IMG/VR virus record: IMGVR_UViG_2731957841_000002
Span: 1-9,726 of that record
Source: a virus
Taxonomy: Duplodnaviria > Heunggongvirae > Uroviricota > Caudoviricetes
Reading direction: 5' to 3' (one strand)
Length of the DNA: 9,726 nt
In this document: one piece after another, positions 1 to 9,726 of the stretch
How positions within the stretch are numbered: position 1 is the first letter of the stretch
How the letters are laid out: every line of letters begins with the position of its first letter
Translations under genes and position numbers: made by a program
The notes under the pieces: model-generated
Database searches by the model: none
Told to the model about the DNA's origin: nothing
What the model saw: the letters and a program-made list of their open reading frames with translations, nothing else

Positions 1-1155
1 ATGCTCACCGTTAAGCAGATTGAAGCAGCAAAGCCGAAAGAAAAACCATACCGCCTACTCGATGGTAATGGCCTGTACCTTTATGTCCCTGTGTCAGGGA
101 AAAAGGTATGGCAGCTTCGCTACAAGATTGACGGTAAGGAAAAAATACTGACCGTAGGAAAATATCCGCTAATGACTTTGCAGGAGGCAAGAGATAAAGC
201 ATGGACCGCGAGGAAAGACATCTCGGTTGGCATCGATCCGGTAAAAGCGAAAAAGGCTTCGTCTAACAACAATTCCTTTAGTGCGATTTACAAGGAATGG
301 TACGAGCACAAGAAGCAAGTCTGGTCAGTAGGCTATGCAAACGAACTTGCCAAAATGTTTGATGACGACATTTTACCCATCATCGGCGGTCTTGAGATTC
401 AGGATATTGAGCCGATGCAACTGTTGGAAGTAATCCGCAGATTTGAAGATCGCGGTGCAATGGAGCGAGCCAACAAAGCACGCAGAAGATGCGGCGAGGT
501 TTTCCGTTACGCTATTGTCACTGGTAGGGCTAAATATAACCCGGCACCTGACCTTGCTGACGCCATGAAGGGATACCGCAAGAAGAACTTCCCGTTTCTT
601 CCAGCAGACCAGATCCCGGCATTCAACAAAGCACTGGCAACATTTTCAGGAAGTATCGTATCGCTCATTGCGACCAAAGTTTTACGCTACACAGCCCTAA
701 GAACGAAAGAACTTCGCTCCATGCAATGGAAGAACGTCGATTTTGAAAACAGGATTATCACCATCGACGCCAGTGTGATGAAGGGACGCAAAATTCATGT
801 GGTCCCGATGTCAGACCAGGTGGTTGAACTTCTCACTACGCTAAGCTCAATCACCAAACCAGTCTCAGAGTTTGTTTTTTCCGGGCGCAACGATAAGAAG
901 AAGCCAATCTGCGAGAACGCGGTATTGCTTGTGATCAAACAAATCGGCTATGAAGGCCTGGAAAGCGGTCACGGATTCAGGCATGAATTCAGCACGATTA
1001 TGAACGAGCACGAATGGCCTGCTGACGCTATTGAAGTGCAGCTGGCACATGCCAACGGCGGATCTGTGCGCGGTATTTACAACCATGCTCAGTATCTCGA
1101 TAAGCGCAGAGAAATGATGCAGTGGTGGGCGGATTGGCTTGATGGGAAGGTGTGA
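1..1155 (+). CDS. intS: Tyrosine site-specific integrase, P4 family (IntS-like)
   Basis: 384-aa ORF. N-terminus MLTVKQIEAAKPKEKPYRLLDGNGLYLYV fits the P4-integrase arm-binding domain pattern. C-terminal catalytic region has GHGFRHEF (His/Arg) and RGIYNHAQY (candidate Tyr nucleophile). Symbol assigned from memory of E. coli IntS; not verified. Confidence 0.9.
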   Translation: MLTVKQIEAAKPKEKPYRLLDGNGLYLYVPVSGKKVWQLRYKIDGKEKILTVGKYPLMTLQEARDKAWTARKDISVGIDPVKAKKASSNNNSFSAIYKEWYEHKKQVWSVGYANELAKMFDDDILPIIGGLEIQDIEPMQLLEVIRRFEDRGAMERANKARRRCGEVFRYAIVTGRAKYNPAPDLADAMKGYRKKNFPFLPADQIPAFNKALATFSGSIVSLIATKVLRYTALRTKELRSMQWKNVDFENRIITIDASVMKGRKIHVVPMSDQVVELLTTLSSITKPVSEFVFSGRNDKKKPICENAVLLVIKQIGYEGLESGHGFRHEFSTIMNEHEWPADAIEVQLAHANGGSVRGIYNHAQYLDKRREMMQWWADWLDGKV

Positions 1156-1158
1156 GGC

Positions 1159-1218
1159 ATTAGCGCAAGACGAATCGACACCTTCGCCAGTTTTGAGTTT
1201 TTTTTGCGCTAATTTTTT
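1159..1218 (+). terminator. Candidate intrinsic terminator after integrase gene
   Basis: 10-bp inverted repeat ATTAGCGCAA (1159-1168) / TTGCGCTAAT (1204-1213) followed by a T6 run (1213-1218). The enclosed loop is long (35 nt), so the call is weak. Confidence 0.3.
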
Positions 1219-1252
1219 GCCACAATCATGCTCCAGGCAATGAAAGCAAGCT

Positions 1253-1275
1253 GATGGTAGGTTATGATTACCATC
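1253..1275. promoter_or_regulatory. Inverted repeat GATGGTA-N9-TACCATC upstream of acyltransferase gene (candidate operator or RNA hairpin)
   Basis: Perfect 7-bp arms at 1253-1259 and 1269-1275, about 33 bp upstream of the ATG at 1308, at the GC-content transition into the AT-rich cargo gene. Confidence 0.2.
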
Positions 1276-1307
1276 TAATATTTATTCTTAAATAAGATGA
1301 GTATAGC

Positions 1308-2402
1308 ATGACCCTAAATAATAAAAACCTTGACATTCAAGCGCTAAGGGCGGTAGCCATAATAATGGTTATTCTACAACATTATAGAAATAGATTACCT
1401 TCGCCAGATTGGTATTTGAGCAGTTTTAATTACGTTAATTATTGGGCTGGAGTTGATATATTTTTGGCTATATCTGGATATTTGATGGCTAAAAGCTTAA
1501 CTGGGGAAATAAAAAAAACCGGCAGAACAACTAAAACATTTTTATTATTTTTATCTAAAAGAATATTTAGGCTAGCCCCATGCTTACTTGTATGGGGCAC
1601 CATCTGTATAATAATCTCTTATTTTATGCAACCTTCTTGGGGTGTTTCACCTCTTAAATCATTCACTACGTTATATACATCCCTACTTGGTTATTCTAAT
1701 ATCCACTTCTATAGGTGCGCAGTAACAGCAAATGATTGTGACCAAATGAATGCGGTGACCTGGTCTCTATCTTTGGAATGGCAACTGTATGCTATAATTG
1801 CGGCAATCATGCTGCTCTTTAACAGGAAAAATCTGACGATTATTTTCATATTCATAGTAGCTATTGCATCTTTCCTGCCAGTAACTCAAATGTACTATCA
1901 ATCCATTGGTTGGTGGATTAGACCACAAGCATTCTTTCTGGGAGCAATTATATTCATAACTGGAAGCAAGTGTTATGTAAGCAATAAATGCACAAGACTA
2001 TTTTTTATTATAGTTTGCATTTTTGTTTTACTCGTTGCCCCTCAGCACTTTAACTATAGATTGACATTACCTGCGATTGGTTTTGCTGGTGCATTATTAT
2101 TTCTATGTTTTATTAGTGGTGGTGTGGTAGATAAAAAAGATAATCCAGCATATAAAATGCTGGACTGGATTGGGGATAGATCTTATAGCATTTATCTTTG
2201 CCATTTACCATTACTACATGTAACAAGGGAGGTTTTGAACAAACTCTCCCTTAATACCGTCATTTACGAAAACAAAGTTATATACTTCTTCGCTTTCATT
2301 CTTTTGCTAGTTGTCTTTTCTGATTTATCATATAGATATGTAGAAAAGAAATTTATAAGAACAGGGAGACTAATAATGAGTAAAAATATTTCACCACTAT
2401 AA
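1308..2402 (+). CDS. Integral-membrane acyltransferase, acyltransferase-3 family (Oac/OafA-like O-antigen acetyltransferase candidate)
   Basis: 364-aa ORF, very hydrophobic with multiple predicted TM segments. N-terminal motif LRAVAIIMVILQH matches the conserved R-x10-H region of acyltransferase-3 proteins. Strongly AT-rich relative to flanking genes. Sits in the integrase-proximal cargo slot. Confidence 0.8.
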   Translation: MTLNNKNLDIQALRAVAIIMVILQHYRNRLPSPDWYLSSFNYVNYWAGVDIFLAISGYLMAKSLTGEIKKTGRTTKTFLLFLSKRIFRLAPCLLVWGTICIIISYFMQPSWGVSPLKSFTTLYTSLLGYSNIHFYRCAVTANDCDQMNAVTWSLSLEWQLYAIIAAIMLLFNRKNLTIIFIFIVAIASFLPVTQMYYQSIGWWIRPQAFFLGAIIFITGSKCYVSNKCTRLFFIIVCIFVLLVAPQHFNYRLTLPAIGFAGALLFLCFISGGVVDKKDNPAYKMLDWIGDRSYSIYLCHLPLLHVTREVLNKLSLNTVIYENKVIYFFAFILLLVVFSDLSYRYVEKKFIRTGRLIMSKNISPL

Positions 2403-2576
2403 TTCATCAATATATTCAGGGGGCAAAAACCTACCCTCTGAATATGTATACCCAACACCAACAACGCTATTGTCGTCAAGCTTTATACAGAGATAATCAT
2501 CGTATTGTTTTCCATCGCCGTTCCATAATATAACGTTAATCACAACATCATTTTCTACCAATGCATATTTCATCAT
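2397..2576 (-). CDS. Small hypothetical protein (59 aa), translationally coupled to the upstream fibre gene
   Basis: Hand-translated: MMKYALVENDVVINVILWNGDGKQYDDYLCIKLDDNSVVGVGYTYSEGRFLPPEYIDEL. Its ATG (2576-2574) overlaps the fibre gene TGA (2575-2573) as ATGA. Below the length cut-off of the supplied ORF track. Its 3' end overlaps the convergent acyltransferase stop by 6 bp. Confidence 0.4.
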   Translation of the reverse strand: MMKYALVENDVVINVILWNGDGKQYDDYLCIKLDDNSVVGVGYTYSEGRFLPPEYIDEL

Positions 2577-3475
2577 GCATACTCCCAGATAAGAACAATA
2601 CCATTACCACCGGCGGCTCCGTTATATTGGGTGGCATTATTCACATATGCGTTAGCCCCACCGCCCCCAGCCCCGAAACCAGTCGGCAATACACCGATAC
2701 CCGCTGAGCCGTGTGGATTACCACCCACACCTAATGGACTATTACCTCCGCCACCAGAGATGATAGAGCTAGTCGATATAGCCATGCCAATAGTTGGATT
2801 CTCTCCAGAGAGATTTAAAATATTACCTCCGGATGCTATAGGAATTCCTGGTGAGTTCTGAATAATAGGAGGTACCCCATTTCCTGAACCACCACCAAAT
2901 CCACCGCCAGCGGTTATAGATCCGAAAGAAGATCCACCACCGTTTCCTCCATTACCGTTAACCCCACCAGCTCCACCAGCTCCAATGGTTACAGTATATG
3001 CTGAGTCTAAATTGGTGATACGGGATTTAGCGTAGGCGCCACCTCCCCCTCCACACCCAACTGCAACACTGGTAGAGTTAGTTGTACCAACCCCGCCCCC
3101 TCCTCCGCCTGCGCCTTGGACTTCAACAATAATGCTTTTCGTTCCTGGGGTTGGCGTATAAGTCCCGGATGTCGTTATTGTGCGAACACCAATAAGCCGT
3201 CCTGTTGCAGCCTGCTCTACCGCACTCGCTAATTGCGCAGAGAGCCCCGCAATATCACCATTATCTTTCACATCCTCACTGGTATTATCTGCGATAAACT
3301 GCCCCACAGCAGCCGCCATTGCCGTTCCTTGCCTCAGACCTTTGTTCACCTGAGCACTTGATGCCTTCCCCGATGTAAAGCCAGCAGATAGGACAGGTAA
3401 TGATTCCCAGTCTGTCTGAGTTGTTACGTTAGCACCAGAGCCAGTTGCAAATGGTTTAAATTCATTTTTAGCCAT
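2573..3475 (-). CDS. Glycine-rich phage tail-fibre-like protein
   Basis: Long GGxGG/GNGG tracts typical of phage fibre or collar proteins. N-terminus MAKNEFKPFATGSGANVTTQ. Start chosen at ATG 3475-3473, overlapping the upstream gene stop as TGATG. The ORF track's alternative start at 3493 adds 6 codons but has an SD only 1 nt from the ATG. Confidence 0.7.
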   Translation of the reverse strand: MAKNEFKPFATGSGANVTTQTDWESLPVLSAGFTSGKASSAQVNKGLRQGTAMAAAVGQFIADNTSEDVKDNGDIAGLSAQLASAVEQAATGRLIGVRTITTSGTYTPTPGTKSIIVEVQGAGGGGGGVGTTNSTSVAVGCGGGGGAYAKSRITNLDSAYTVTIGAGGAGGVNGNGGNGGGSSFGSITAGGGFGGGSGNGVPPIIQNSPGIPIASGGNILNLSGENPTIGMAISTSSIISGGGGNSPLGVGGNPHGSAGIGVLPTGFGAGGGGANAYVNNATQYNGAAGGNGIVLIWEYA

Positions 3476-4155
3476 CAGAGTAATTTCCCCCATGCTCCTA
3501 CATCAAAACCACTGATGAATTCGTTATCCATATCAAAACCAAAAAATTTTGAACCTTCCGATGGAGTTTCCACCGAAGGTGTTTCAATGCCACCCGCCCA
3601 CACACCGGCGGCTTTTACTGTGAGATACCCCTGTTTAATTGCCGCAATTAACTCACGCGATACATCTGAAATATCAGTATCAGGAAAGACCCAGACCGAT
3701 ATCGTCATGTCCTGGTTATCGACAATCTGCATTCGCAGCCCGGCTCCTGCTGTCGCCGTGTCAAGAATTGCCGGAAGCGAATCATTCCGTCCGTCCCAGT
3801 TATTAATCGCAATCTTCGCTTTAAGGATGACACGATAAGTTTCATCGCTGAGGTACATGTATCCGGAATCAGGATCGTATGGCCCCTGCCATACACCCTG
3901 ATCATATCCAAGCCCGTCGGTATCCCAGCTGAAATAGATACCTGAGATAGGCTGGCTGACAACACGGCTACGCCCGATCCACAATCCCAGAATGTCAAGT
4001 TGCACACCAACGGCAGAGTCAATATCAAATGCAGTAATCAGCCCTCTGGTGGCAGCCGCAACATCAATAAGCGGCCGGGTCATCAGATCAACATGCGCAA
4101 GAAATTTAGGTTTGGTGGCGTGGTAGTTCGTGATTAGTTCGGTGTATTTGCTCAT
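3475..4155 (-). CDS. Phage tail/baseplate-associated protein of unknown function (possibly DUF2612-type)
   Basis: 226-aa ORF in an operon with the fibre gene. ATGA overlap with the upstream 172-aa gene. Family assignment is from memory and tentative. Confidence 0.7.
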   Translation of the reverse strand: MSKYTELITNYHATKPKFLAHVDLMTRPLIDVAAATRGLITAFDIDSAVGVQLDILGLWIGRSRVVSQPISGIYFSWDTDGLGYDQGVWQGPYDPDSGYMYLSDETYRVILKAKIAINNWDGRNDSLPAILDTATAGAGLRMQIVDNQDMTISVWVFPDTDISDVSRELIAAIKQGYLTVKAAGVWAGGIETPSVETPSEGSKFFGFDMDNEFISGFDVGAWGKLL

Positions 4156-4670
4156 GACTCCACCGTTATAACGATATTTTCCGGGGTACAGGACGCAGAT
4201 TCGTTATATCTGATATCAATGTTTGATGACGACAAAGCCCCCGGGGATTTCCCAATCGTCAGTTCCTGAATATCGTAATAGCGTGCATTACCGGTTTTAG
4301 CGTTGGCATTATCCGGTTGTTTCTGGAACGCAACACTGCGTGCCGTGATGATGTCGCCGCTGACCTTGTTGCGGATCACGATAACGTTATTCCCCCATGT
4401 GGCAGAAGACTGGCTCTGTGCGTTATACGCCAGCGACAATTTTTTATTTGTCGGTGATGTCTTCAGAAGGTTAACGGTAATCGTCCCGCTTTTATCTGCA
4501 TGGAGACTGTGCATCACTTCGCCATCAGCACCGATGGTCATGGTGTTTTTAGGACCGCCCATCGCAACCACAATCCCCTCTTCAGAACTTGCAGAACCGT
4601 ACCCGAGGTCAATCGAACCGGTCGGCCCGGTCAGCGTCGCAGTGACATCCATAAAAGAATAGGTAGACAT
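4152..4670 (-). CDS. Phage tail-module protein, unknown function (172 aa)
   Basis: First gene of the leftward tail remnant. SD-like AAGGGGAAG upstream of the ATG at 4670. Coupled to the downstream gene. Confidence 0.7.
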   Translation of the reverse strand: MSTYSFMDVTATLTGPTGSIDLGYGSASSEEGIVVAMGGPKNTMTIGADGEVMHSLHADKSGTITVNLLKTSPTNKKLSLAYNAQSQSSATWGNNVIVIRNKVSGDIITARSVAFQKQPDNANAKTGNARYYDIQELTIGKSPGALSSSNIDIRYNESASCTPENIVITVES

Positions 4671-4680
4671 TCACTTCCCC

Positions 4681-4773
4681 TTAGCGAACAACGTTAATCT
4701 GTACGTCAGCGTAATGAACCGCGCCTGCAAGTTTTATTGCAGCCTGAATCACCGGAGCCTTAAGGGCGCACAT
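4681..4773 (-). pseudogene. Probable C-terminal remnant of a deleted late gene (30-codon ORF ending ...APVIQAAIKLAGAVHYADVQINVVR)
   Basis: Hand-translated frame reads like a genuine protein C-terminus and stops just before the RBS of the 172-aa gene. Overlaps the end of the truncated cro-like ORF in another frame. Confidence 0.3.
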
Positions 4774-4882
4774 AGATCCCCTTCACCTTGTCTGCGGTAG
4801 CTCCCTGTGTGCATCCAACTGCCTTAGCAAGTGTTGTTTGAGAGATATTCAGTGACTCTCGATATTTTCGTAGGTTGCTCAT
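4760..4882 (-). CDS. Cro-like HTH protein, apparently C-terminally truncated (40 aa)
   Basis: MSNLRKYRESLNISQTTLAKAVGCTQGATADKVKGIYVRP has an HTH (ISQTTLAKAVGC) and is divergent from cI, as cro is in lambda. GGAGGG lies upstream of the ATG. Shorter than typical Cro proteins (about 60-75 aa). The ORF track's 97-aa version runs upstream through the operator region. Confidence 0.5.
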   Translation of the reverse strand: MSNLRKYRESLNISQTTLAKAVGCTQGATADKVKGIYVRP

Positions 4883-4908
4883 ATGCCCTCCATAGTAACC
4901 ATGAAACA

Positions 4909-4937
4909 ATAATACGATATGTACTTTTAGAATGCAA
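4909..4937 (-). promoter_or_regulatory. pR-like promoter for the cro-like gene
   Basis: On the minus strand: -35 TTGCAT (4937-4932), 17-bp spacer, -10 TATTAT (4914-4909). The spacer contains a GTAC-centred motif shared with the pL region, a candidate operator. Confidence 0.4.
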
Positions 4938-4993
4938 ACAAAAAATACATCTTGTGCATGGATGGTTTTAGTACAGAGCGTAATAATAAGGGT

Positions 4994-5653
4994 ATGAAAA
5001 TGAAATGGTATGAACTGGCTAGATCCAGAATGAAAGAGCTCGGCATAACTCAAGAGAAGTTAGCTGAAGAGCTTGGTATGACGCAGGGTGGAATTGGTCA
5101 CTGGTTGCGCGGATCTCGTCATCCATCTCTTGACGAGATTGGTGTGGTGTTTAAATACCTTGGTATTGATAACGTCTCATTCAACCACGACGGTACATTT
5201 TCACCTGTTGGCGAATACTCATCTGCCCCCGTTAAAAAACAATATGAGTACCCTGTTTTTTCTCATGTTCAGGCCGGGATGTTCTCGCCTGAGCTTAGAA
5301 CCTTTACCAAAGGTGATGCGGAGAGATGGGTCAGCACAACCAAAAAAGCCAGTGATTGTGCGTTTTGGCTTGAAGTTGAAGGTAATTCCATGACCGCGCC
5401 AACAGGATCCAAGCCAAGCTTTCCTGACGGGATGTTAATTCTCGTTGACCCTGATCAGGCTGTTGAGCCAGGTGATTTCTGCATAGCCAGACTTGGTGGT
5501 GACGAGTTTACCTTTAAGAAACTGATCAGGGATAGCGGTCAGGTGTTCCTCCAGCCACTAAACCCGCAATATCCAATGATTCCATGCAATGATAGCTGTT
5601 CCGTAGTAGGGAAAGTTATCGCCAGCCAGTGGCCTGAAGAGACATTTAGTTAA
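4994..5653 (+). CDS. cI: CI-type prophage repressor (HTH N-terminal domain plus S24 LexA-like autopeptidase C-terminal domain)
   Basis: C-terminal half nearly matches lambda cI as I recall it: [50 protein letters not shown] (Ser nucleophile), FTFKKL (Lys), plus an Ala-Gly cleavage site in QAGM. N-terminal HTH domain is unlike lambda. Start placed at ATG 4994 (AAGGG upstream) rather than the TTG at 4952 in the ORF track. Confidence 0.9.
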
Positions 5654-5684
5654 CAGCCTCACCACTCTAAAACACACAACAATA

Positions 5685-5713
5685 ACCCGACCTTAGCGTC
5701 GGGTTTTCTTTTT
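5685..5713 (+). terminator. Intrinsic terminator downstream of cI
   Basis: Stem ACCCGAC (5685-5691) / GTCGGGT (5698-5704), 6-nt loop, then TTTCTTTTT (5705-5713). Confidence 0.6.
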
Positions 5714-5778
5714 CCAAAATATAAACCCATTAAATACAAAGCGTTATAAAAAACTAATTATATTTAGAACATTTTGTA

Positions 5779-5807
5779 TTGACTCGATAAAGTACAAATC
5801 GTACTAT
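5779..5807 (+). promoter_or_regulatory. pL-like early-left promoter
   Basis: -35 TTGACT (5779-5784), 17-bp spacer, -10 TACTAT (5802-5807). The downstream transcript start region ATCAGCAGGACGCACTGACC matches the lambda pL transcript start as I recall it. Confidence 0.5.
5791..5805. promoter_or_regulatory. Candidate repressor operator (palindrome AGTAC-N5-GTACT) overlapping the pL -10
   Basis: Perfect 5-bp inverted arms. Related AGTAC/GTACT motifs recur in the cro-cI intergenic region (4921-4925, 4970-4974). Confidence 0.3.
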
Positions 5808-5846
5808 TTAGCCATCAGCAGGACGCACTGACCACCATGAAGGTGA

Positions 5847-5877
5847 TGCTCTTAAAAATTAAGCCCTGAAGAAGGGC
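5847..5877 (+). promoter_or_regulatory. nutL-type antitermination site (boxA TGCTCTTAA plus boxB hairpin GCCCTGAAGAAGGGC)
   Basis: boxB (5863-5877) is identical to the lambda nutL boxB. boxA (5847-5855) differs from lambda CGCTCTTAA at its first base and resembles the rrn-type boxA TGCTCTT. Spacer is AAATTAA as in lambda. Confidence 0.7.
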
Positions 5878-6049
5878 AGCATTCAAAGCAGAAGGCTTTG
5901 GGGTGTGGTGAAGGGTTCATGGATGGGAATATGTCGCACGTAAAGCGGCGAGGCCTGCGGAACTATTGCCGAATTGAAGTCGGCCGAAGCAGGTCGAAAT
6001 GGGTCTCCCACCTACCACACCACCAAAGCTAACTGACAGGAGAATCCAG

Positions 6050-6253
6050 ATGGCAAAGCAATCAAAACCATCACCTACACCTGAACAGGTTCTAAAAGCA
6101 TTCACTGACGCAGCAATGCAGAAAAACACCGTGGAAGAGCTTAAACAGGCGTTCGCCAAAGCGTGGAAGATGCTCGAAGGAACACCGGAGCAGCACAAAG
6201 CGCAGGACGTTTACAACATCAGACGAGACGAATTAGAAGGAGCGGCTGCTTAA
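6050..6253 (+). CDS. Hypothetical small protein (67 aa) in the position lambda N would occupy; not N-like
   Basis: AGGAGA RBS and ATG context match the lambda N start region as I recall it, but the protein (MAKQSKPSPTPEQVLKAF...) has no arginine-rich motif. The ORF track's upstream extension from 5999 lacks an RBS. Confidence 0.6.
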   Translation: MAKQSKPSPTPEQVLKAFTDAAMQKNTVEELKQAFAKAWKMLEGTPEQHKAQDVYNIRRDELEGAAA

Positions 6254-6636
6254 TGGCACATTCGATTACTGTAAGACTAAACAAACCCGCAAGAGAGTTT
6301 CAGGCCGGGGAAAATATCGGATTCAACATCCGTGCTGGCGTTCAGTATTACGATCGCCAGACAAAAAAGAAAGAATGGACAAACTACAGCGCCGTTGTAT
6401 TTGCCAAGCCAGGAGCGCAAGCGGATTACTACCGTAGTGTTCTTGTTGAAGGTGGCATTGTGGAAATTACCGGAGAAAACATCAGGGTTGATGTTTATCA
6501 GGGGCAAAATGGTCAATCAATCACTCTTGAATTACTGAATGCAAAGATTGGATTTGCAACTTCAGGAAACAGCCAACAGCAGCAAAGTAGCAATCATCAA
6601 AATCATCCTGAATACGACGATTCAATTCCCTTCTAA
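6253..6636 (+). CDS. SSB-like single-stranded DNA-binding protein (short form, 127 aa) with conserved acidic C-terminal tip
   Basis: C-terminus ...PEYDDSIPF resembles the E. coli SSB tip DFDDDIPF, preceded by a Q-rich linker. The N-terminal ~100 aa is compatible with an OB fold (KEWTNYSAVVFAK, VEGGIVEITGE). TAATG stop/start overlap with the upstream gene. Confidence 0.7.
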   Translation: MAHSITVRLNKPAREFQAGENIGFNIRAGVQYYDRQTKKKEWTNYSAVVFAKPGAQADYYRSVLVEGGIVEITGENIRVDVYQGQNGQSITLELLNAKIGFATSGNSQQQQSSNHQNHPEYDDSIPF

Positions 6637-6659
6637 AGTAGCAAAATAAGGATTCCATT

Positions 6660-6953
6660 ATGCCAGCGCCTCTGTATGGTGCGGATGACCCGCGCCGCTG
6701 TTCCGGCAATTCCGTATCGGAGGTGCTGGATAAATTCAGAAAAAACTACGACCTGATAATGTCGCTACCGCAGGAAACGAAAGAGGAAAAGGAATTTCGT
6801 CATTGTATATGGCTTGCAGAGAAAGAAGAGCGCGAGCGAATTTACCAGACATCAATCCGACCATTCCGCAAAGCCACATATACCCACTTCCCTGAAATTG
6901 ACCCGCGCCTGCGTAATTACCGCTCACGCTATGGCGCTATCAGTAATGACTGA
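6660..6953 (+). CDS. Hypothetical protein (97 aa)
   Basis: AAGGA RBS 7 nt upstream of the ATG. Operon context. No recognisable domain. Confidence 0.6.
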   Translation: MPAPLYGADDPRRCSGNSVSEVLDKFRKNYDLIMSLPQETKEEKEFRHCIWLAEKEERERIYQTSIRPFRKATYTHFPEIDPRLRNYRSRYGAISND

Positions 6954-6963
6954 GGAATTAACA

Positions 6964-7254
6964 ATGAAAACAATGAAGCTAAACATCGACCTCGGAAAAT
7001 ACGTTATTACCGGAACCAAACACGACCTGATTCTTAGTGAAATAGGAATTATCAAAGAAGGTGAGAATGCAGGGAAAGAAACACTAAGTCGTATCGGTTA
7101 TTACAGCAAGTTTGAGCATCTGGTTAAAGAGTTATGCAACCGTGAAATTCTGTTATCTCAGGCGCAGACGTTACAGGATATTCAGCAGCATATCGAGACT
7201 TTATGTGTGTCACTTAGCATGGCTATTGACCAGTTCGTGGAGAGTAAATCATGA
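6964..7254 (+). CDS. Hypothetical protein (96 aa)
   Basis: GAGGAA RBS upstream of ATG 6964. The ORF track's longer version from 6814 overlaps the preceding gene and lacks an RBS. Confidence 0.6.
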
Positions 7255-7415
7255 GAGGACTTGCATACAATCCCGGCATTCTTCCGGCAGAAATGATTAT
7301 TCGCCAACGCGTAAAGCCAATGCCATCGAGAGAGGAATTGCTTAAGAGAAATTCTTTTCCGTCAGTAAATCAAAACAAATATCTGAATGCGATGTTGCGG
7401 AGTGGGAAAAAATGA
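7251..7415 (+). CDS. Hypothetical small basic protein (54 aa), translationally coupled at both ends
   Basis: Hand-translated: [58 protein letters not shown] overlap with the upstream gene stop and ATGA overlap with the downstream gene start. Below the ORF-track length cut-off. Confidence 0.35.
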
Positions 7416-7963
7416 AACAAATGTCACTAATTGAGATGGATGGTTTTCTGAAAGATAAATGCATCCCAAGTGATTTAAAGGTTAACGAAACAAACGCTGA
7501 ATATCTGGTGCGTAAATTTGCTGAAGCGGAGGCCAAGATTTCGGCTCTGTCCGAAGACCAGCAGAGAGCGATTGAGTCAATTAAGCAGGCTGATGCAGCT
7601 GTTAAGTTGGCACACGAGAAGTTTTCGGCGCTTGCGGCGGAGAATGCGGTAATGCTCGAAACTATTGAAGCCGTTCGCAGTGTTGCGGATAACTCCAGTG
7701 GAATTGCCGGATGGCATTTGAATGGCGATATCGCCACATGGGAAGAGATTCTTCCTGAAATTAACGATATCGAAACCCCAGCCACCGATGCTTTCCTGGC
7801 TGAAGTACGGGCGCAGGGGGTAGAGATGTACGCAGATAACCTCGACAACGTAGCAGACGACGCAGAACGAGGTGGTTTTGATTATGCCGTTAAGTTTCTA
7901 CGCAGTGAAGCGTCTAGTGTACGTTTGTTCGCCGACCAGCTTCGCAAAGGAGGCAACCAGTGA
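7412..7963 (+). CDS. Hypothetical acidic protein (183 aa)
   Basis: Operon context. GTGA overlap with the downstream gene. The antisense 168-aa ORF over the same region is low-complexity and judged spurious. Confidence 0.65.
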
Positions 7964-8484
7964 GCAAGATTGACTATCAGGCACTGCGTGAGTTAGCAAA
8001 ACAGGCAACACAGGGTGAATGGGTCGCATTTATTTCGCCGGGCAAATACGGCACGTACGCCGTACACACACCAGGTGATAATCATCACGGAGATATTGTC
8101 GACTGGCCAGGATTCGACGAACAGAAAAACGCAGAGAACAACGCTCGTTATATCGCAGCTTTCAACCCTGAAGTAGTGCTGGCACTGCTGGATGAACGGG
8201 AAAGAAACCAGCAATACATAAAACGCCGCGATCAGGAGAACGAGGAAATTGCGTTAACGGTAGGGAAGTTGCGCGTTGAGCTTGAGGCAGAAAAACAGCG
8301 GGCAAAGGATCTGTTTATGGAAAATGCTCGGCTTAAGTCAGGTATAGCCGGTCTGATACACCTCGGTATTCGATATGCAGATGTTGAGGTCATGAAAATT
8401 GCTGGAGATGCCCAGCTTTCTACCCCATGCACTGACAGCATCATAAACAGCATTGCAACAGGCATTCGCATCAAAGGAGAGTAA
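7960..8484 (+). CDS. Ead/Ea22-like early protein
   Basis: N-terminus [21 protein letters not shown] matches the conserved N-terminal signature of Ead/Ea22-like lambdoid early-left proteins as I recall it. GTG start with AAAGGAGG RBS. Confidence 0.75.
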   Translation: MSKIDYQALRELAKQATQGEWVAFISPGKYGTYAVHTPGDNHHGDIVDWPGFDEQKNAENNARYIAAFNPEVVLALLDERERNQQYIKRRDQENEEIALTVGKLRVELEAEKQRAKDLFMENARLKSGIAGLIHLGIRYADVEVMKIAGDAQLSTPCTDSIINSIATGIRIKGE

Positions 8485-8686
8485 TATGAGCAGGAATACG
8501 GGTTTGTAAAAGATAACGCTTGTGAAAATGCTGAATTTCGCGTCGTCTTCACAGCGATGCCAGAGTCTGTAGTGTCAGATGATGACCGTACTCAAACATC
8601 GGGTTGAGTATTATCTTACTGTTTCTTTACATAAACATTGCTGATACCGTTTAGCTGAAACGACATACATTGCAAGGAGTTTATAA

Positions 8687-8968
8687 ATGAGTATCAATGA
8701 GTTAGAGTCTGAGCAAAAAGATTGGGCGTTATCAATGTTGTGCAGATCCGGTGTCTTGTCTCCATGCAGACATCACGAAGGTGTTTATGTAGATGAAGGT
8801 ATAGATATAGAGTCGGCATACAAATATTCCATGAAGGTTTATAAGTCTAATGAAGACAAATCCCCATTCTGCAATGTGCGAGAAATGACTGATACCGTGC
8901 AAAATTATTATCACGAGTACGGTGGAAACGATACTTGCCCTCTCTGTACAAAACATATAGATGATTAA
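8687..8968 (+). CDS. Hypothetical Cys-containing small protein (93 aa), AT-rich
   Basis: AAGGAG RBS 8 nt upstream. Five Cys including a CPLC pair. Preceded by a 200-bp intergenic region and followed by tandem terminators, a moron-like arrangement. Confidence 0.6.
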   Translation: MSINELESEQKDWALSMLCRSGVLSPCRHHEGVYVDEGIDIESAYKYSMKVYKSNEDKSPFCNVREMTDTVQNYYHEYGGNDTCPLCTKHIDD

Positions 8969-8986
8969 ACCAAATATTACATAACA

Positions 8987-9015
8987 ATCCTCGCACTCGC
9001 GGGGATTTCTTTTAT
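8987..9015 (+). terminator. Intrinsic terminator (first of tandem pair)
   Basis: Stem ATCCTCGC / GCGGGGAT (one G-U wobble), 4-nt loop ACTC, followed by TTCTTTTAT. Confidence 0.5.
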
Positions 9016-9018
9016 CTG

Positions 9019-9044
9019 AACTCGCTACGGCGAGTTTTGTTTTA
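9019..9044 (+). terminator. Intrinsic terminator (second of tandem pair)
   Basis: Stem ACTCGC (9020-9025) / GCGAGT (9030-9035), loop TACG, followed by TTTGTTTTA. Confidence 0.55.
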
Positions 9045-9056
9045 TGGAGACAAGAA

Positions 9057-9401
9057 ATGTCAGATTTGGCTATGAAGGTTTTGAAATGGCAATCGACTAG
9101 CGATGTCAGTATCAGTAGCGCAACTCTTGCCTCAATCGCATGTGGACTGAAAAAGAATATCTATGGTCATCACTTCGGCGCTCCCCATGACGCAGCAGAC
9201 TTTCGGCGATGCGTTGCACTTGTTGAGCAGATTCCAGAAATCAGAGATTCATTCAACAAGGTTGCAAAGCGCGTTCCGGCATTCAAAGGAATCCTCAACG
9301 AATGGGATTCCCTCGTTGCTCTGTTGAAGTCTGAAATGAAGATACACGGAAACAAAGCACCAGAGACTTACAGAAGAATCAGCGAGCTACGCAAGGACTA
9401 A
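9057..9401 (+). CDS. Hypothetical protein (114 aa)
   Basis: GGAGA RBS upstream. Lies between the terminator pair and torI. A short hairpin (GCCTCA...TGAGGC, 9407-9425) follows it. Confidence 0.6.
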   Translation: MSDLAMKVLKWQSTSDVSISSATLASIACGLKKNIYGHHFGAPHDAADFRRCVALVEQIPEIRDSFNKVAKRVPAFKGILNEWDSLVALLKSEMKIHGNKAPETYRRISELRKD

Positions 9402-9525
9402 CCACCGCCTCACACTCGATGAGGCCTGTTCATTTCTCAAGATATCCAGACCTACCATTGCTGCATCAATGCGGCTTTTTATTGCCTGATTTGCAGGTTC
9501 AATTCCATATTCGGAGATAGCACTC

Positions 9526-9726
9526 ATGCAACACGAACTACAACCTGATTCACTGGTTGATTTGAAATTCATCATGGCTGATACTGGCTTCGGTAAGACC
9601 TTCATCTATGACCGGATTAAGTCCGGCGACCTGCCTAAAGCCAAAGTTATCCACGGACGAGCAAGATGGTTATATCGTGACCATTGTGAATTCAAAAATA
9701 AGCTCTTAAGCCGCGCCAATGGGTAA
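9526..9726 (+). CDS. torI: Excisionase / recombination directionality factor, TorI-like
   Basis: 66-aa protein MQHELQPDSLVDLKFIMADTGFGKTFIYDRIKSGDLPKAKVIHGRARWLYRDHCEFKNKLLSRANG matches TorI of E. coli KplE1 as I recall it. GGAGA RBS upstream. The window ends at its stop codon. Confidence 0.9.
   Translation: MQHELQPDSLVDLKFIMADTGFGKTFIYDRIKSGDLPKAKVIHGRARWLYRDHCEFKNKLLSRANG

Follow-up and report, generated by a model that had tools for sequence, protein, structure and literature searches.

An exact copy of the lambda accessory gene ea8.5 in a KplE1/CPS-53-type defective prophage of Escherichia coli

Introduction

The morons of phages HK97 and HK022 are said to have been defined by Juhala and Hendrix, and the classical examples include bor and lom of lambda. 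The small gene ea8.5 has been present on lambda maps since the 1970s-80s and is classed as an early gene in the lambda literature. It lies in the exo-xis region, which is treated as a pL-transcribed part of the early-left operon (PMC4195576, PMC7093339). According to citing papers, this region has been implicated in cell-cycle synchrony and in a block that keeps the host from initiating replication (Sergueev et al. 2002). The fold of two structures of the Ea8.5 family, PDB entries 2M7A and 2M7B, has been summarised as a hybrid of homeodomain and zinc finger (Kwan et al. 2013, as cited in PMC8614690, PMC7093339 and PMC3824215).

Here we analysed a stretch of viral DNA of 9,726 nucleotides (IMG/VR record IMGVR_UViG_2731957841_000002, positions 1 to 9,726), referred to as the window. 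A first-pass annotation of this DNA had drawn attention to a small cysteine-rich gene in its right part and interpreted it as a moron cassette, namely an accessory gene inserted into the early operon and expressed independently of it.

Results and Discussion

Identity and surroundings of the gene

The small cysteine-rich gene proved to be the long-known lambda accessory gene ea8.5, copied without change and lying in its canonical position. All 282 of 282 nucleotides of the ORF are identical to lambda (29374-29655, complement; NP_040611), and the shared DNA spans positions ~8461-9059 (lambda 29283-29870, complement), so that it takes in the last 24 nt of an ea22-like gene and reaches as far as the ATG of the gene that follows. 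Across this range the window differs from lambda by an 11-nt insertion right after the ea22 stop codon and by three SNPs in the terminator region. The translated ORF matched the Pfam family PF20735 (Lambda_ea8_5) with E=1.1e-48 (164.3 bits against a cut-off of 27, residues 8-93 of 93), and phrog_6325 with E=8.3e-54 over residues 1-93. Two antisense ORFs (8732-8956 and 8847-8996) were judged to be chance occurrences, the plus-strand ORF representing a verified protein family. The lower GC content that had been reported for the 93-aa ORF was borne out (38.7% against 46-48% in the neighbours): the upstream ea22-like gene has 48.4% and the downstream gene 46.1%, the GC3 of ea8.5 is 38.3%, and only 4% of 282-nt windows, with the acyltransferase island excluded, are equally AT-rich. 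Ea8.5 at this locus is an ordinary and already known gene, and probably no new independently expressed cassette. As a discovery it carries little weight, since its family is already represented in Pfam and by two structures solved by NMR, and the gain lies in the correct label and in several clarifications that are given below.

The window represents a KplE1/CPS-53-type defective prophage of E. coli, with intS at its left end and torI at its right end (Table 1). The best-scoring plus-strand promoter site of the window is the pL-like site (12.3-12.8 bits), which was matched by 1.3% of shuffles (p ~0.013). A simple scan of the plus strand between this promoter (5807) and position 8985 detected no terminator-like site. 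The element is internally deleted, with only a C-terminal fragment left of erf and no recognisable antiterminator gene after the promoter. Its nearest complete relative is a ~42-kb prophage located beside dsdC in E. coli PI24, which has the gene order ea22, ea8.5, 114-aa gene and torI. In no complete E. coli genome was 80% of the window present at a single locus.

Table 1. Features of the window, with positions counted from its first nucleotide.
Feature	Position	Strand or direction	Remarks
intS	1-1155		left end of element
Acyltransferase gene			left part of window; AT-rich
Tail/baseplate genes		-	left part of window
cI-like S24 repressor gene	4952-5653		in rightward part
Bidirectional terminator	5684-5705		
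pL-like promoter, TTGACT-17-TACTAT	5779-5807	+	downstream of cI-like repressor gene
erf, C-terminal fragment	5999-6253	rightward	
SSB-like ORF		rightward	after erf fragment; DDSIPF tail by eye, no Pfam match
abc2		rightward	after SSB-like ORF
DUF5405-like ORF	6964-7254	rightward	
DUF2737-type ORF	7251-7415	rightward	phrog_1117 and matching PI24 gene
Two ea22-like genes		rightward	before ea8.5
Conserved Ea22 3' tail	8461-8484	+	GIRIKGE + stop, GGCATTCGCATCAAAGGAGA; left boundary of ea8.5 module
Untranslated leader/intergenic region of ea8.5	8485-8686	+	AT-rich, 202 bp non-coding, 39.6% GC; 8499-8686 shared with lambda
Mini-ORF MSRNTGL + stop	8487-8510	+	7 codons; ATG where coupled gene starts in other prophages
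Shine-Dalgarno AAGGAG of ea8.5	8674-8679	+	7 nt before ATG, read from sequence
ea8.5 CDS	8687-8968	+	ATG start, 93 aa; lambda nucleotide identity, PF20735, phrog_6325 and PDB 2M7A matches
Candidate zinc-ligand codons	C27 8765-8767; H30 8774-8776; C84 8936-8938; C87 8945-8947	+	invariance in 40 sequences
Intrinsic terminator 1 (predicted t3-lambda)	8986-9017	+	hairpin 8986-9007, 9 pairs, then TCTTTTAT
Intrinsic terminator 2 (predicted t4-lambda)	9018-9047	+	hairpin 9018-9037, 8 pairs, then TGTTTTAT
114-aa phrog_1229 gene	ATG 9057	rightward	after ea8.5 terminators
torI	9526-9726		right end of element

A putative zinc site in a helical protein

Ea8.5 contains five cysteines at positions 19, 27, 62, 84 and 87, the last two of which form the pair C84-P-L-C87, as had been described. 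Exhaustive HMMER searches of 1.84 billion representatives revealed a small protein family of 73 clusters at E<=1e-3, nearly all of them 90-100 aa long; a word-indexed protein search returned near-identical fragments only. Among 40 aligned sequences, which are 27-61% identical to the query, no columns except C27, H30, C84 and C87 were invariant, and because these residues alone are invariant the metal site is assigned to the pattern C-x2-H...C-x2-C. C19 and C62 are variable across the 40 relatives and lineage-specific. Ligand conservation together with the published descriptions of the homologues makes C27, H30, C84 and C87 a probable zinc site. The proposal that CPLC is part of a metal site thus found support, C84 and C87 being invariant together with C27 and H30 and the solved homologues being zinc-finger hybrids; the site itself would be C27/H30/C84/C87 and not simply "five cysteines".

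Phmmer searches against the PDB matched 2M7A over all 93 residues (E=2.5e-18) and 2M7B (E=9.5e-4). The former is ECO111_1119 of EPEC O111:H-, which belongs to the same family and shares length and C-x2-H...C-x2-C ligands with Ea8.5 at ~41% identity. The latter is PP_3909 of Pseudomonas putida, a family member of the same length with ~28% identity, for which the printed alignment ends at C84. An AlphaFold2 model based on the 40-sequence alignment reached a pLDDT of 86.7 (a single-sequence model, with a pLDDT of only 41, was unusable) and is mainly helical (H3-21, H41-54, H64-78, H85-92) with one short hairpin. Both 2M7A and 2M7B superpose on this predicted model, and they were retrieved when it was compared to the PDB with Foldseek (2M7A: E=8.9e-5, TM 0.65/0.69; 2M7B: E=6e-3, TM 0.59/0.68); beyond these two the search gave no match, the next entry having an E-value of at least 2. 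From the model we infer that the ea8.5 product shares the hybrid homeodomain/zinc-finger fold of 2M7A and 2M7B. A zinc-ribbon-like fold, for which the first-pass annotation had proposed a structure prediction, was rejected on the grounds of the mainly helical model and of PDB matches to Ea8.5 homologues only. A match to Prok-RING_4 (E=0.097) was below threshold.

Distribution of ea8.5 and exchange at the slot between ea22 and xis

Among 5426 complete E. coli genomes, the ea8.5 ORF was found in 246 and the leader (8499-8686) in 242. Copies of leader and ORF always occurred at 95-99% identity or better, and the leader co-occurred only with ea8.5 in these genomes. The earlier reading of ea8.5 as an accessory gene of atypical composition within the early-left operon is consistent with this distribution (246/5426 genomes) and with the unrelated genes that occupy this slot in other prophages. 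The comparison across relatives, which had been suggested as a check, showed that ea8.5 is sporadic and that its GC offset recurs in two diverged alleles.

On the left side, four different ea22 variants converge on the conserved Ea22 tail right before the ea8.5 leader. The tail includes an AAGGAG which is the ribosome-binding site of the next gene in other prophages. Out of 103 distinct contexts of the tail in IMG/VR, seven contained an ea8.5-family gene and 96 did not; in the contexts lacking ea8.5, another gene mostly begins at the stop codon or a few bases from it, e.g. GTGATATG. On the right side the slot ends at a terminator cassette that is described in the following section. Ea8.5 with its leader thus represents one alternative cargo between two conserved boundaries, the Ea22 tail and the terminator cassette. 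These comparisons indicate that ea8.5 and its ~190-nt AT-rich leader travel as one mobile mosaic module (~8461-8980), and that the slot between ea22 and xis is hypervariable, with ea8.5 as one of many alternative cargoes.

The placement ea22, ea8.5, xis also occurs in lambda, PI24, E2348/69, E189 and a K-12 lysogen, and ea8.5 was furthermore found in lambda-type and P22-type prophages at ybhC, torS, sbcB and dsdC. The statement of one review that ea8.5 is exclusive to lambda is contradicted by the copies in wild lambda-type and P22-type prophages. This clarifies that ea8.5 circulates as a module in such prophages and at several attachment sites. Remnants of ea8.5 were seen in mEp234 and in E. 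coli ST12468.

All 246 E. coli copies of ea8.5 are at least 99% identical, which therefore speaks for recent spread and holds no information on selection. Such recent spread would also be expected if ea8.5 were intact only through the recent arrival of the module and did nothing for host or element. The internal deletion of the element with its erf fragment, the lack of any complete E. coli genome with 80% of the window at a single locus, the remnants mentioned above and the finding by CRISPRi that ea8.5 is non-essential in lambda (PMC10695390) would fit this explanation. Nevertheless, we consider it very unlikely, as the ORF is intact and so are its Shine-Dalgarno sequence and the four metal ligands. 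Moreover, family length and ligands are kept over 27-61% identity, which argues for purifying selection on the Ea8.5 family as a whole, and the repressor gene and the pL-like promoter are retained, so that induction is still conceivable.

Two diverged alleles showed a similar organisation. At 51 IMG/VR loci the same slot holds the 2M7A-type allele (41% identity); its GC content is 38% with flanks of 41-51% (mostly 45-50%), its leader is ~114 nt long and has a GC content of 27%, and 18-19 nt past the stop codon the same terminator cassette begins. The second allele (54-56% identity) comes from Huaxiibacter chinensis and one viral contig. Its GC content is 42-44% where the flanks have 54-58%, its leader measures 113 nt, and a terminator of different sequence lies 6 nt past the stop codon. 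Its leader holds a TTTACA-16-TATTCT site 52 nt ahead of the ATG, the score of which is not above shuffles. The leaders of different ea8.5 alleles are barely alignable. Judging from these alleles, the recurrent anatomy of AT-rich leader, AT-rich gene and terminator is the best argument for the moron idea. In a locus search with a 3-sequence alignment, most matches were lambda DNA present as a contaminant in unrelated assemblies, and one was a genuine diverged locus.

The tandem terminators as part of the prophage backbone

The two hairpins behind ea8.5 (Table 1) are those of t3-lambda and t4-lambda except for one SNP each (PMC4195576 Table 4); t3 and t4 have been predicted behind ea8.5 in lambda from sequence (PMC4195576; Bloch et al. 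2014). The 88-nt terminator segment folds with -27.3 kcal/mol (z = -5.1), and 0 of 200 dinucleotide shuffles were as stable. Downstream of the second terminator lie GGAG (9046-9049) and the ATG (9057) of the next gene. The terminator cassette (~75 bp, ~8981-9056) was detected at 3541 places in 2462 of the 5426 complete E. coli genomes (45%). The genes before it are diverse and encode DUF551 in strain 131, ASCH in O157:H7 FRIK804 and DUF4752 in E6; strain 120899 has an inverted gene at this place, and the cassette was also seen with no gene ahead of it. In every prophage compared, orf55 or the 114-aa gene comes next, and after that xis/int, of which four types were found. A homology break is located between the gene and the first hairpin, with identity beginning ~6 nt ahead of hairpin 1.

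Because the cassette occurs behind unrelated genes, the tandem terminators are to be read as a backbone signal before xis/int and not as the tail of ea8.5. The comparison indicates that the putative terminators belong to the prophage backbone and are not part of the ea8.5 unit. The two terminators that had been noted immediately after the gene are thus present as hairpins, but they form a shared cassette and are not ea8.5's own. This clarifies their nature as a widespread signal ahead of xis/int in lambdoid prophages.

The leader and the expression of ea8.5

The intergenic region of about 200 bp that had been pointed out upstream of ea8.5 is present as a non-coding stretch of 202 bp; a promoter within it, which had been raised as a possibility, did not emerge from our searches. 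A consensus promoter scan of the plus strand over 8300-9726 found no site, and the best PWM site in the gap (TTCACA-16-TAGTGT, ~7.9 bits) was equalled or beaten by 54-68% of dinucleotide shuffles. For the leaders of the three alleles, the fractions of dinucleotide shuffles matching the sigma-70 PWM score were 0.68, 0.88 and 0.31-0.33, compared to 0.013 for the pL-like promoter as control. A promoter-like site on the minus strand (8510-8483) was judged to be chance, promoter-like sites being fewer than in shuffles. Distant blastn searches of the leader against phages retrieved lambda-type copies only. In the literature search, no mapping of transcription start sites in the exo-xis region was found. 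Independent expression of ea8.5 is unproven rather than disproven.

A function of the gap itself, as regulatory RNA, small peptide gene or decayed gene remnant, was also considered and appears extremely improbable. The 7-codon mini-ORF does have a good ribosome-binding site and starts exactly at the conserved position of coupled gene starts, and a 40-codon open frame in the leader runs on in frame past the ea22 stop. However, an Rfam search of the whole window at E<=1 gave no match, and the RNA fold of the leader showed no excess stability over shuffles (z = +0.28). A tblastn search with the 40-codon frame in 50,697 phage records found only lambda itself and one Klebsiella match at E=0.5, and in lambda an 11-nt deletion shifts this frame out of frame with ea22. 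The poor alignability of the different leaders also speaks against a function of the gap. With the same 11-nt deletion lambda lacks the mini-ORF, which is probably the vestigial start of a displaced gene.

Expression of ea8.5 has been considered in several lambda studies. Its mRNA was below that of upstream ORFs, for which the authors blamed a predicted terminator between orf61 and orf73 (PMC4195576). From mRNA patterns of ea22 and ea8.5, the Wegrzyn group speculated on a regulation somewhat independent of N and cro (PMC7093339). Furthermore, ea8.5 or the exo-xis region on plasmids without pL led to phenotypes (PMC3824215, PMC4195576), which would fit an internal promoter or read-through from the vector.

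An alternative explanation is that ea8.5 is expressed alone, possibly from the repressed prophage, by a leader with a weak, activator-dependent or non-sigma-70 promoter and with transcripts ending at the first hairpin. The exclusive movement of the leader with ea8.5 would be in line with this, as would the fact that three alleles with 41-61% protein identity have GC contents of 38-44% against 45-58% in the flanks, an AT-rich gap of 113-202 nt and a terminator 6-19 nt past the stop codon. The same holds for the Huaxiibacter allele, with its distinct terminator sequence and its TTTACA-16-TATTCT site, for the translational coupling of most neighbouring cargo genes, unlike ea8.5, and for the phenotypes caused by plasmid-borne ea8.5 without pL (PMC3824215). 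On the other hand, the promoter scores of all three leaders were no better than those of dinucleotide shuffles, the terminators behind the lambda and 2M7A alleles belong to the backbone cassette that other prophages share, and the literature puts the region under pL, with the low ea8.5 mRNA tracking upstream terminators (PMC4195576). Altogether we regard this explanation as unlikely. A bolder version, to which we attach a small chance only, would see Ea8.5-family genes as self-contained AT-rich units of gene and 110-200-nt leader that act on the host and have an unconventional promoter (activator-dependent, dependent on an alternative sigma factor, or H-NS-relieved), so that their expression would not require pL and might occur even in the repressed prophage. 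If so, ea8.5 would be a true early-region moron with the tandem terminators doubling as its stop signal, and the published hints for a host-acting Ea8.5 would be MinE and cell division or replication initiation.

In our view, the copy of lambda ea8.5 in this element is likely an accessory gene of the pL operon that arrived as a mobile module and encodes a small zinc-stabilised regulatory protein. Synteny and the lambda literature suggest that ea8.5 would be expressed as a delayed-early gene from a repressor-controlled pL-type promoter, for which 5779-5807 is the candidate. In complete phages, an antiterminator would carry transcription past the tandem terminators into xis/int. In the deleted element described here, transcripts from pL would reach ea8.5 and stop just behind it, because a recognisable antiterminator gene is lacking. 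Expression from the operon alone leaves the 113-202-nt AT-rich leaders of all three alleles unexplained, neighbouring cargo being usually translationally coupled.

The product would be a small protein of helical build, stabilised by a single zinc ion on C27, H30, C84 and C87. It may act as a small regulatory binder which lowers the CII-dependent promoters pI and paQ and thereby biases the decision between lysis and lysogeny; this is the least certain step of the proposed mechanism. Summaries of Los et al. 2008 in PMC7093339 and PMC3824215 state that extra copies of ea8.5 repress paQ and, weakly, pI. Yeast two-hybrid screens yielded many partners of Ea8.5, including Int, Q, Ren, Stf, Tfa and MinE, and Ea8.5 was flagged as promiscuous (PMC3224144). 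The functional evidence for Ea8.5 consists of overexpression and promiscuous yeast two-hybrid results (PMC3224144).

Comparison with known systems

The locus can be compared to several described systems. The classical morons resemble ea8.5 in their atypical base composition, in being present or absent at one position in close relatives and in having a terminator behind them. In contrast to these, ea8.5 has no detectable promoter, the terminators behind it are backbone, and it lies inside the repressor-controlled early-left operon. The interpretation as a moron cassette hence applies in part: the gene is a sporadic AT-rich cargo with its own leader, in which two diverged alleles are alike, but the terminators, the missing promoter signal and the assignment of the region to pL in the literature do not agree with it.

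A further parallel is given by the other cargo genes of the exo-xis or ea region (orf60a, orf61, orf63, orf73, ea22, orf55, and genes for DUF551, ASCH and DUF4752 proteins), which are likewise small, non-essential, situated in the variable stretch of the pL operon and exchanged as mosaic modules at conserved boundaries. Most of these are tightly packed or translationally coupled, whereas the ea8.5 alleles alone stand behind a long AT-rich leader. The closest counterpart is lambda ea8.5 itself, with an identical CDS, a near-identical leader, the same tandem terminators and the same position after ea22. The differences lie in the surroundings: the copy described here resides in a defective prophage of KplE1/P22 type (intS/torI, abc2, erf fragment) and not in lambda, the upstream ea22 variant is a different one, and the gene downstream encodes the 114-aa phrog_1229 protein where lambda has orf55.

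Distribution and loss of ea8.5

A 2021 review described Ea8.5 as 'exclusive to lambda', which is contradicted by our finding of an identical ea8.5 in wild prophages of P22 and lambda type, located at dsdC/argW, torS, sbcB and ybhC. Remnants adjoining the tandem-terminator cassette were also detected, namely the last 17 codons alone in phage mEp234 (JQ182732.1 23191-23241) and the last 32 nt alone in E. coli ST12468 (NZ_CP103694.1 3125844-3125875). These are deletion scars and indicate that ea8.5 has been lost from its slot in some lineages.

Exact lambda sequence furthermore occurred as low-coverage contigs in unrelated bacterial assemblies, among others of Shewanella, Pseudomonas, Oceanobacillus and Kitasatospora (loci L008-L027, L029 and L030 of our contig search), and within two phage records, MW057783.1 and OQ055246.1, which carry the names Campylobacter phage CJLB-4 and Xanthomonas phage vB_XooS_NR08. 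This is almost certainly contamination with lambda control DNA.

Boundaries of the ea8.5 slot

Many unrelated genes follow the Ea22 tail with its stop/start overlap, a boundary sequence that is widespread. The conserved ATG at this boundary, where lambda has lost 11 nt, opens an ORF of just 7 codons (MSRNTGL) in the ea8.5 module. A 40-codon open frame lies in frame past the ea22-like stop codon in the window, whereas the same DNA is out of frame with ea22 in lambda; beyond this lambda DNA no homologue of the frame was found.

On the other side lies the tandem-terminator cassette, which includes the next gene's ribosome-binding site. It is conserved in 2462 of 5426 complete E. coli genomes with up to 6 copies per genome, and regardless of integrase type it always immediately precedes the final small gene ahead of xis/int. 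The phrog_1229 gene and lambda orf55 are alternatives behind the terminators, and E189 carries both.

Features of the window
Feature	Position	Remarks
intS	1-1155	
Acyl_transf_3 gene	1308-2402	directly after intS; GC 33.9%, GC3 29.9%
Bidirectional terminator	5684-5705	immediately after cI-like gene
Sigma-70-like promoter	5779-5807	TTGACT-17-TACTAT; after bidirectional terminator; strongest in window
ORF matching Erf-like proteins	5999-6253	
Ea22 tail and stop/start overlap	8461-8510	
40-codon open frame	8485-8607	
Tandem-terminator cassette	8981-9056	
phrog_1229 gene	9057-9401	114 aa; behind tandem terminators
Two terminator-like hairpins	9407-9425, 9460-9475	between phrog_1229 gene and torI
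torI	9526-9726	

Accessory gene candidates

The first-pass annotation had described the ea8.5 ORF as arranged like a moron, i.e. an independently expressed accessory cassette. The Acyl_transf_3 gene, probably an O-antigen-modifying conversion gene, is a far stronger moron candidate. Promoter-like and terminator-like sites surround this gene.

Internal deletion and ends of the element

The sigma-70-like promoter is probably the pL equivalent. The ORF matching Erf-like annealing proteins does so only over their C-terminal part (positions 183-250 of 251). The pL-proximal region was apparently joined to the end of erf by deletion, and any antiterminator, cIII and kil genes would thereby have been lost.

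The window as a whole looks like an internally deleted derivative, because two of its parts match the two ends of a ~42-kb prophage of E. coli PI24, one end with 100% identity over positions 1-4293 and the other with 99.9% identity over the ea8.5 region. No complete E. coli genome showed a single-place match to at least 80% of the window. The ends of the window coincide exactly with intS and torI, the same genes that bound the defective prophage KplE1/CPS-53.
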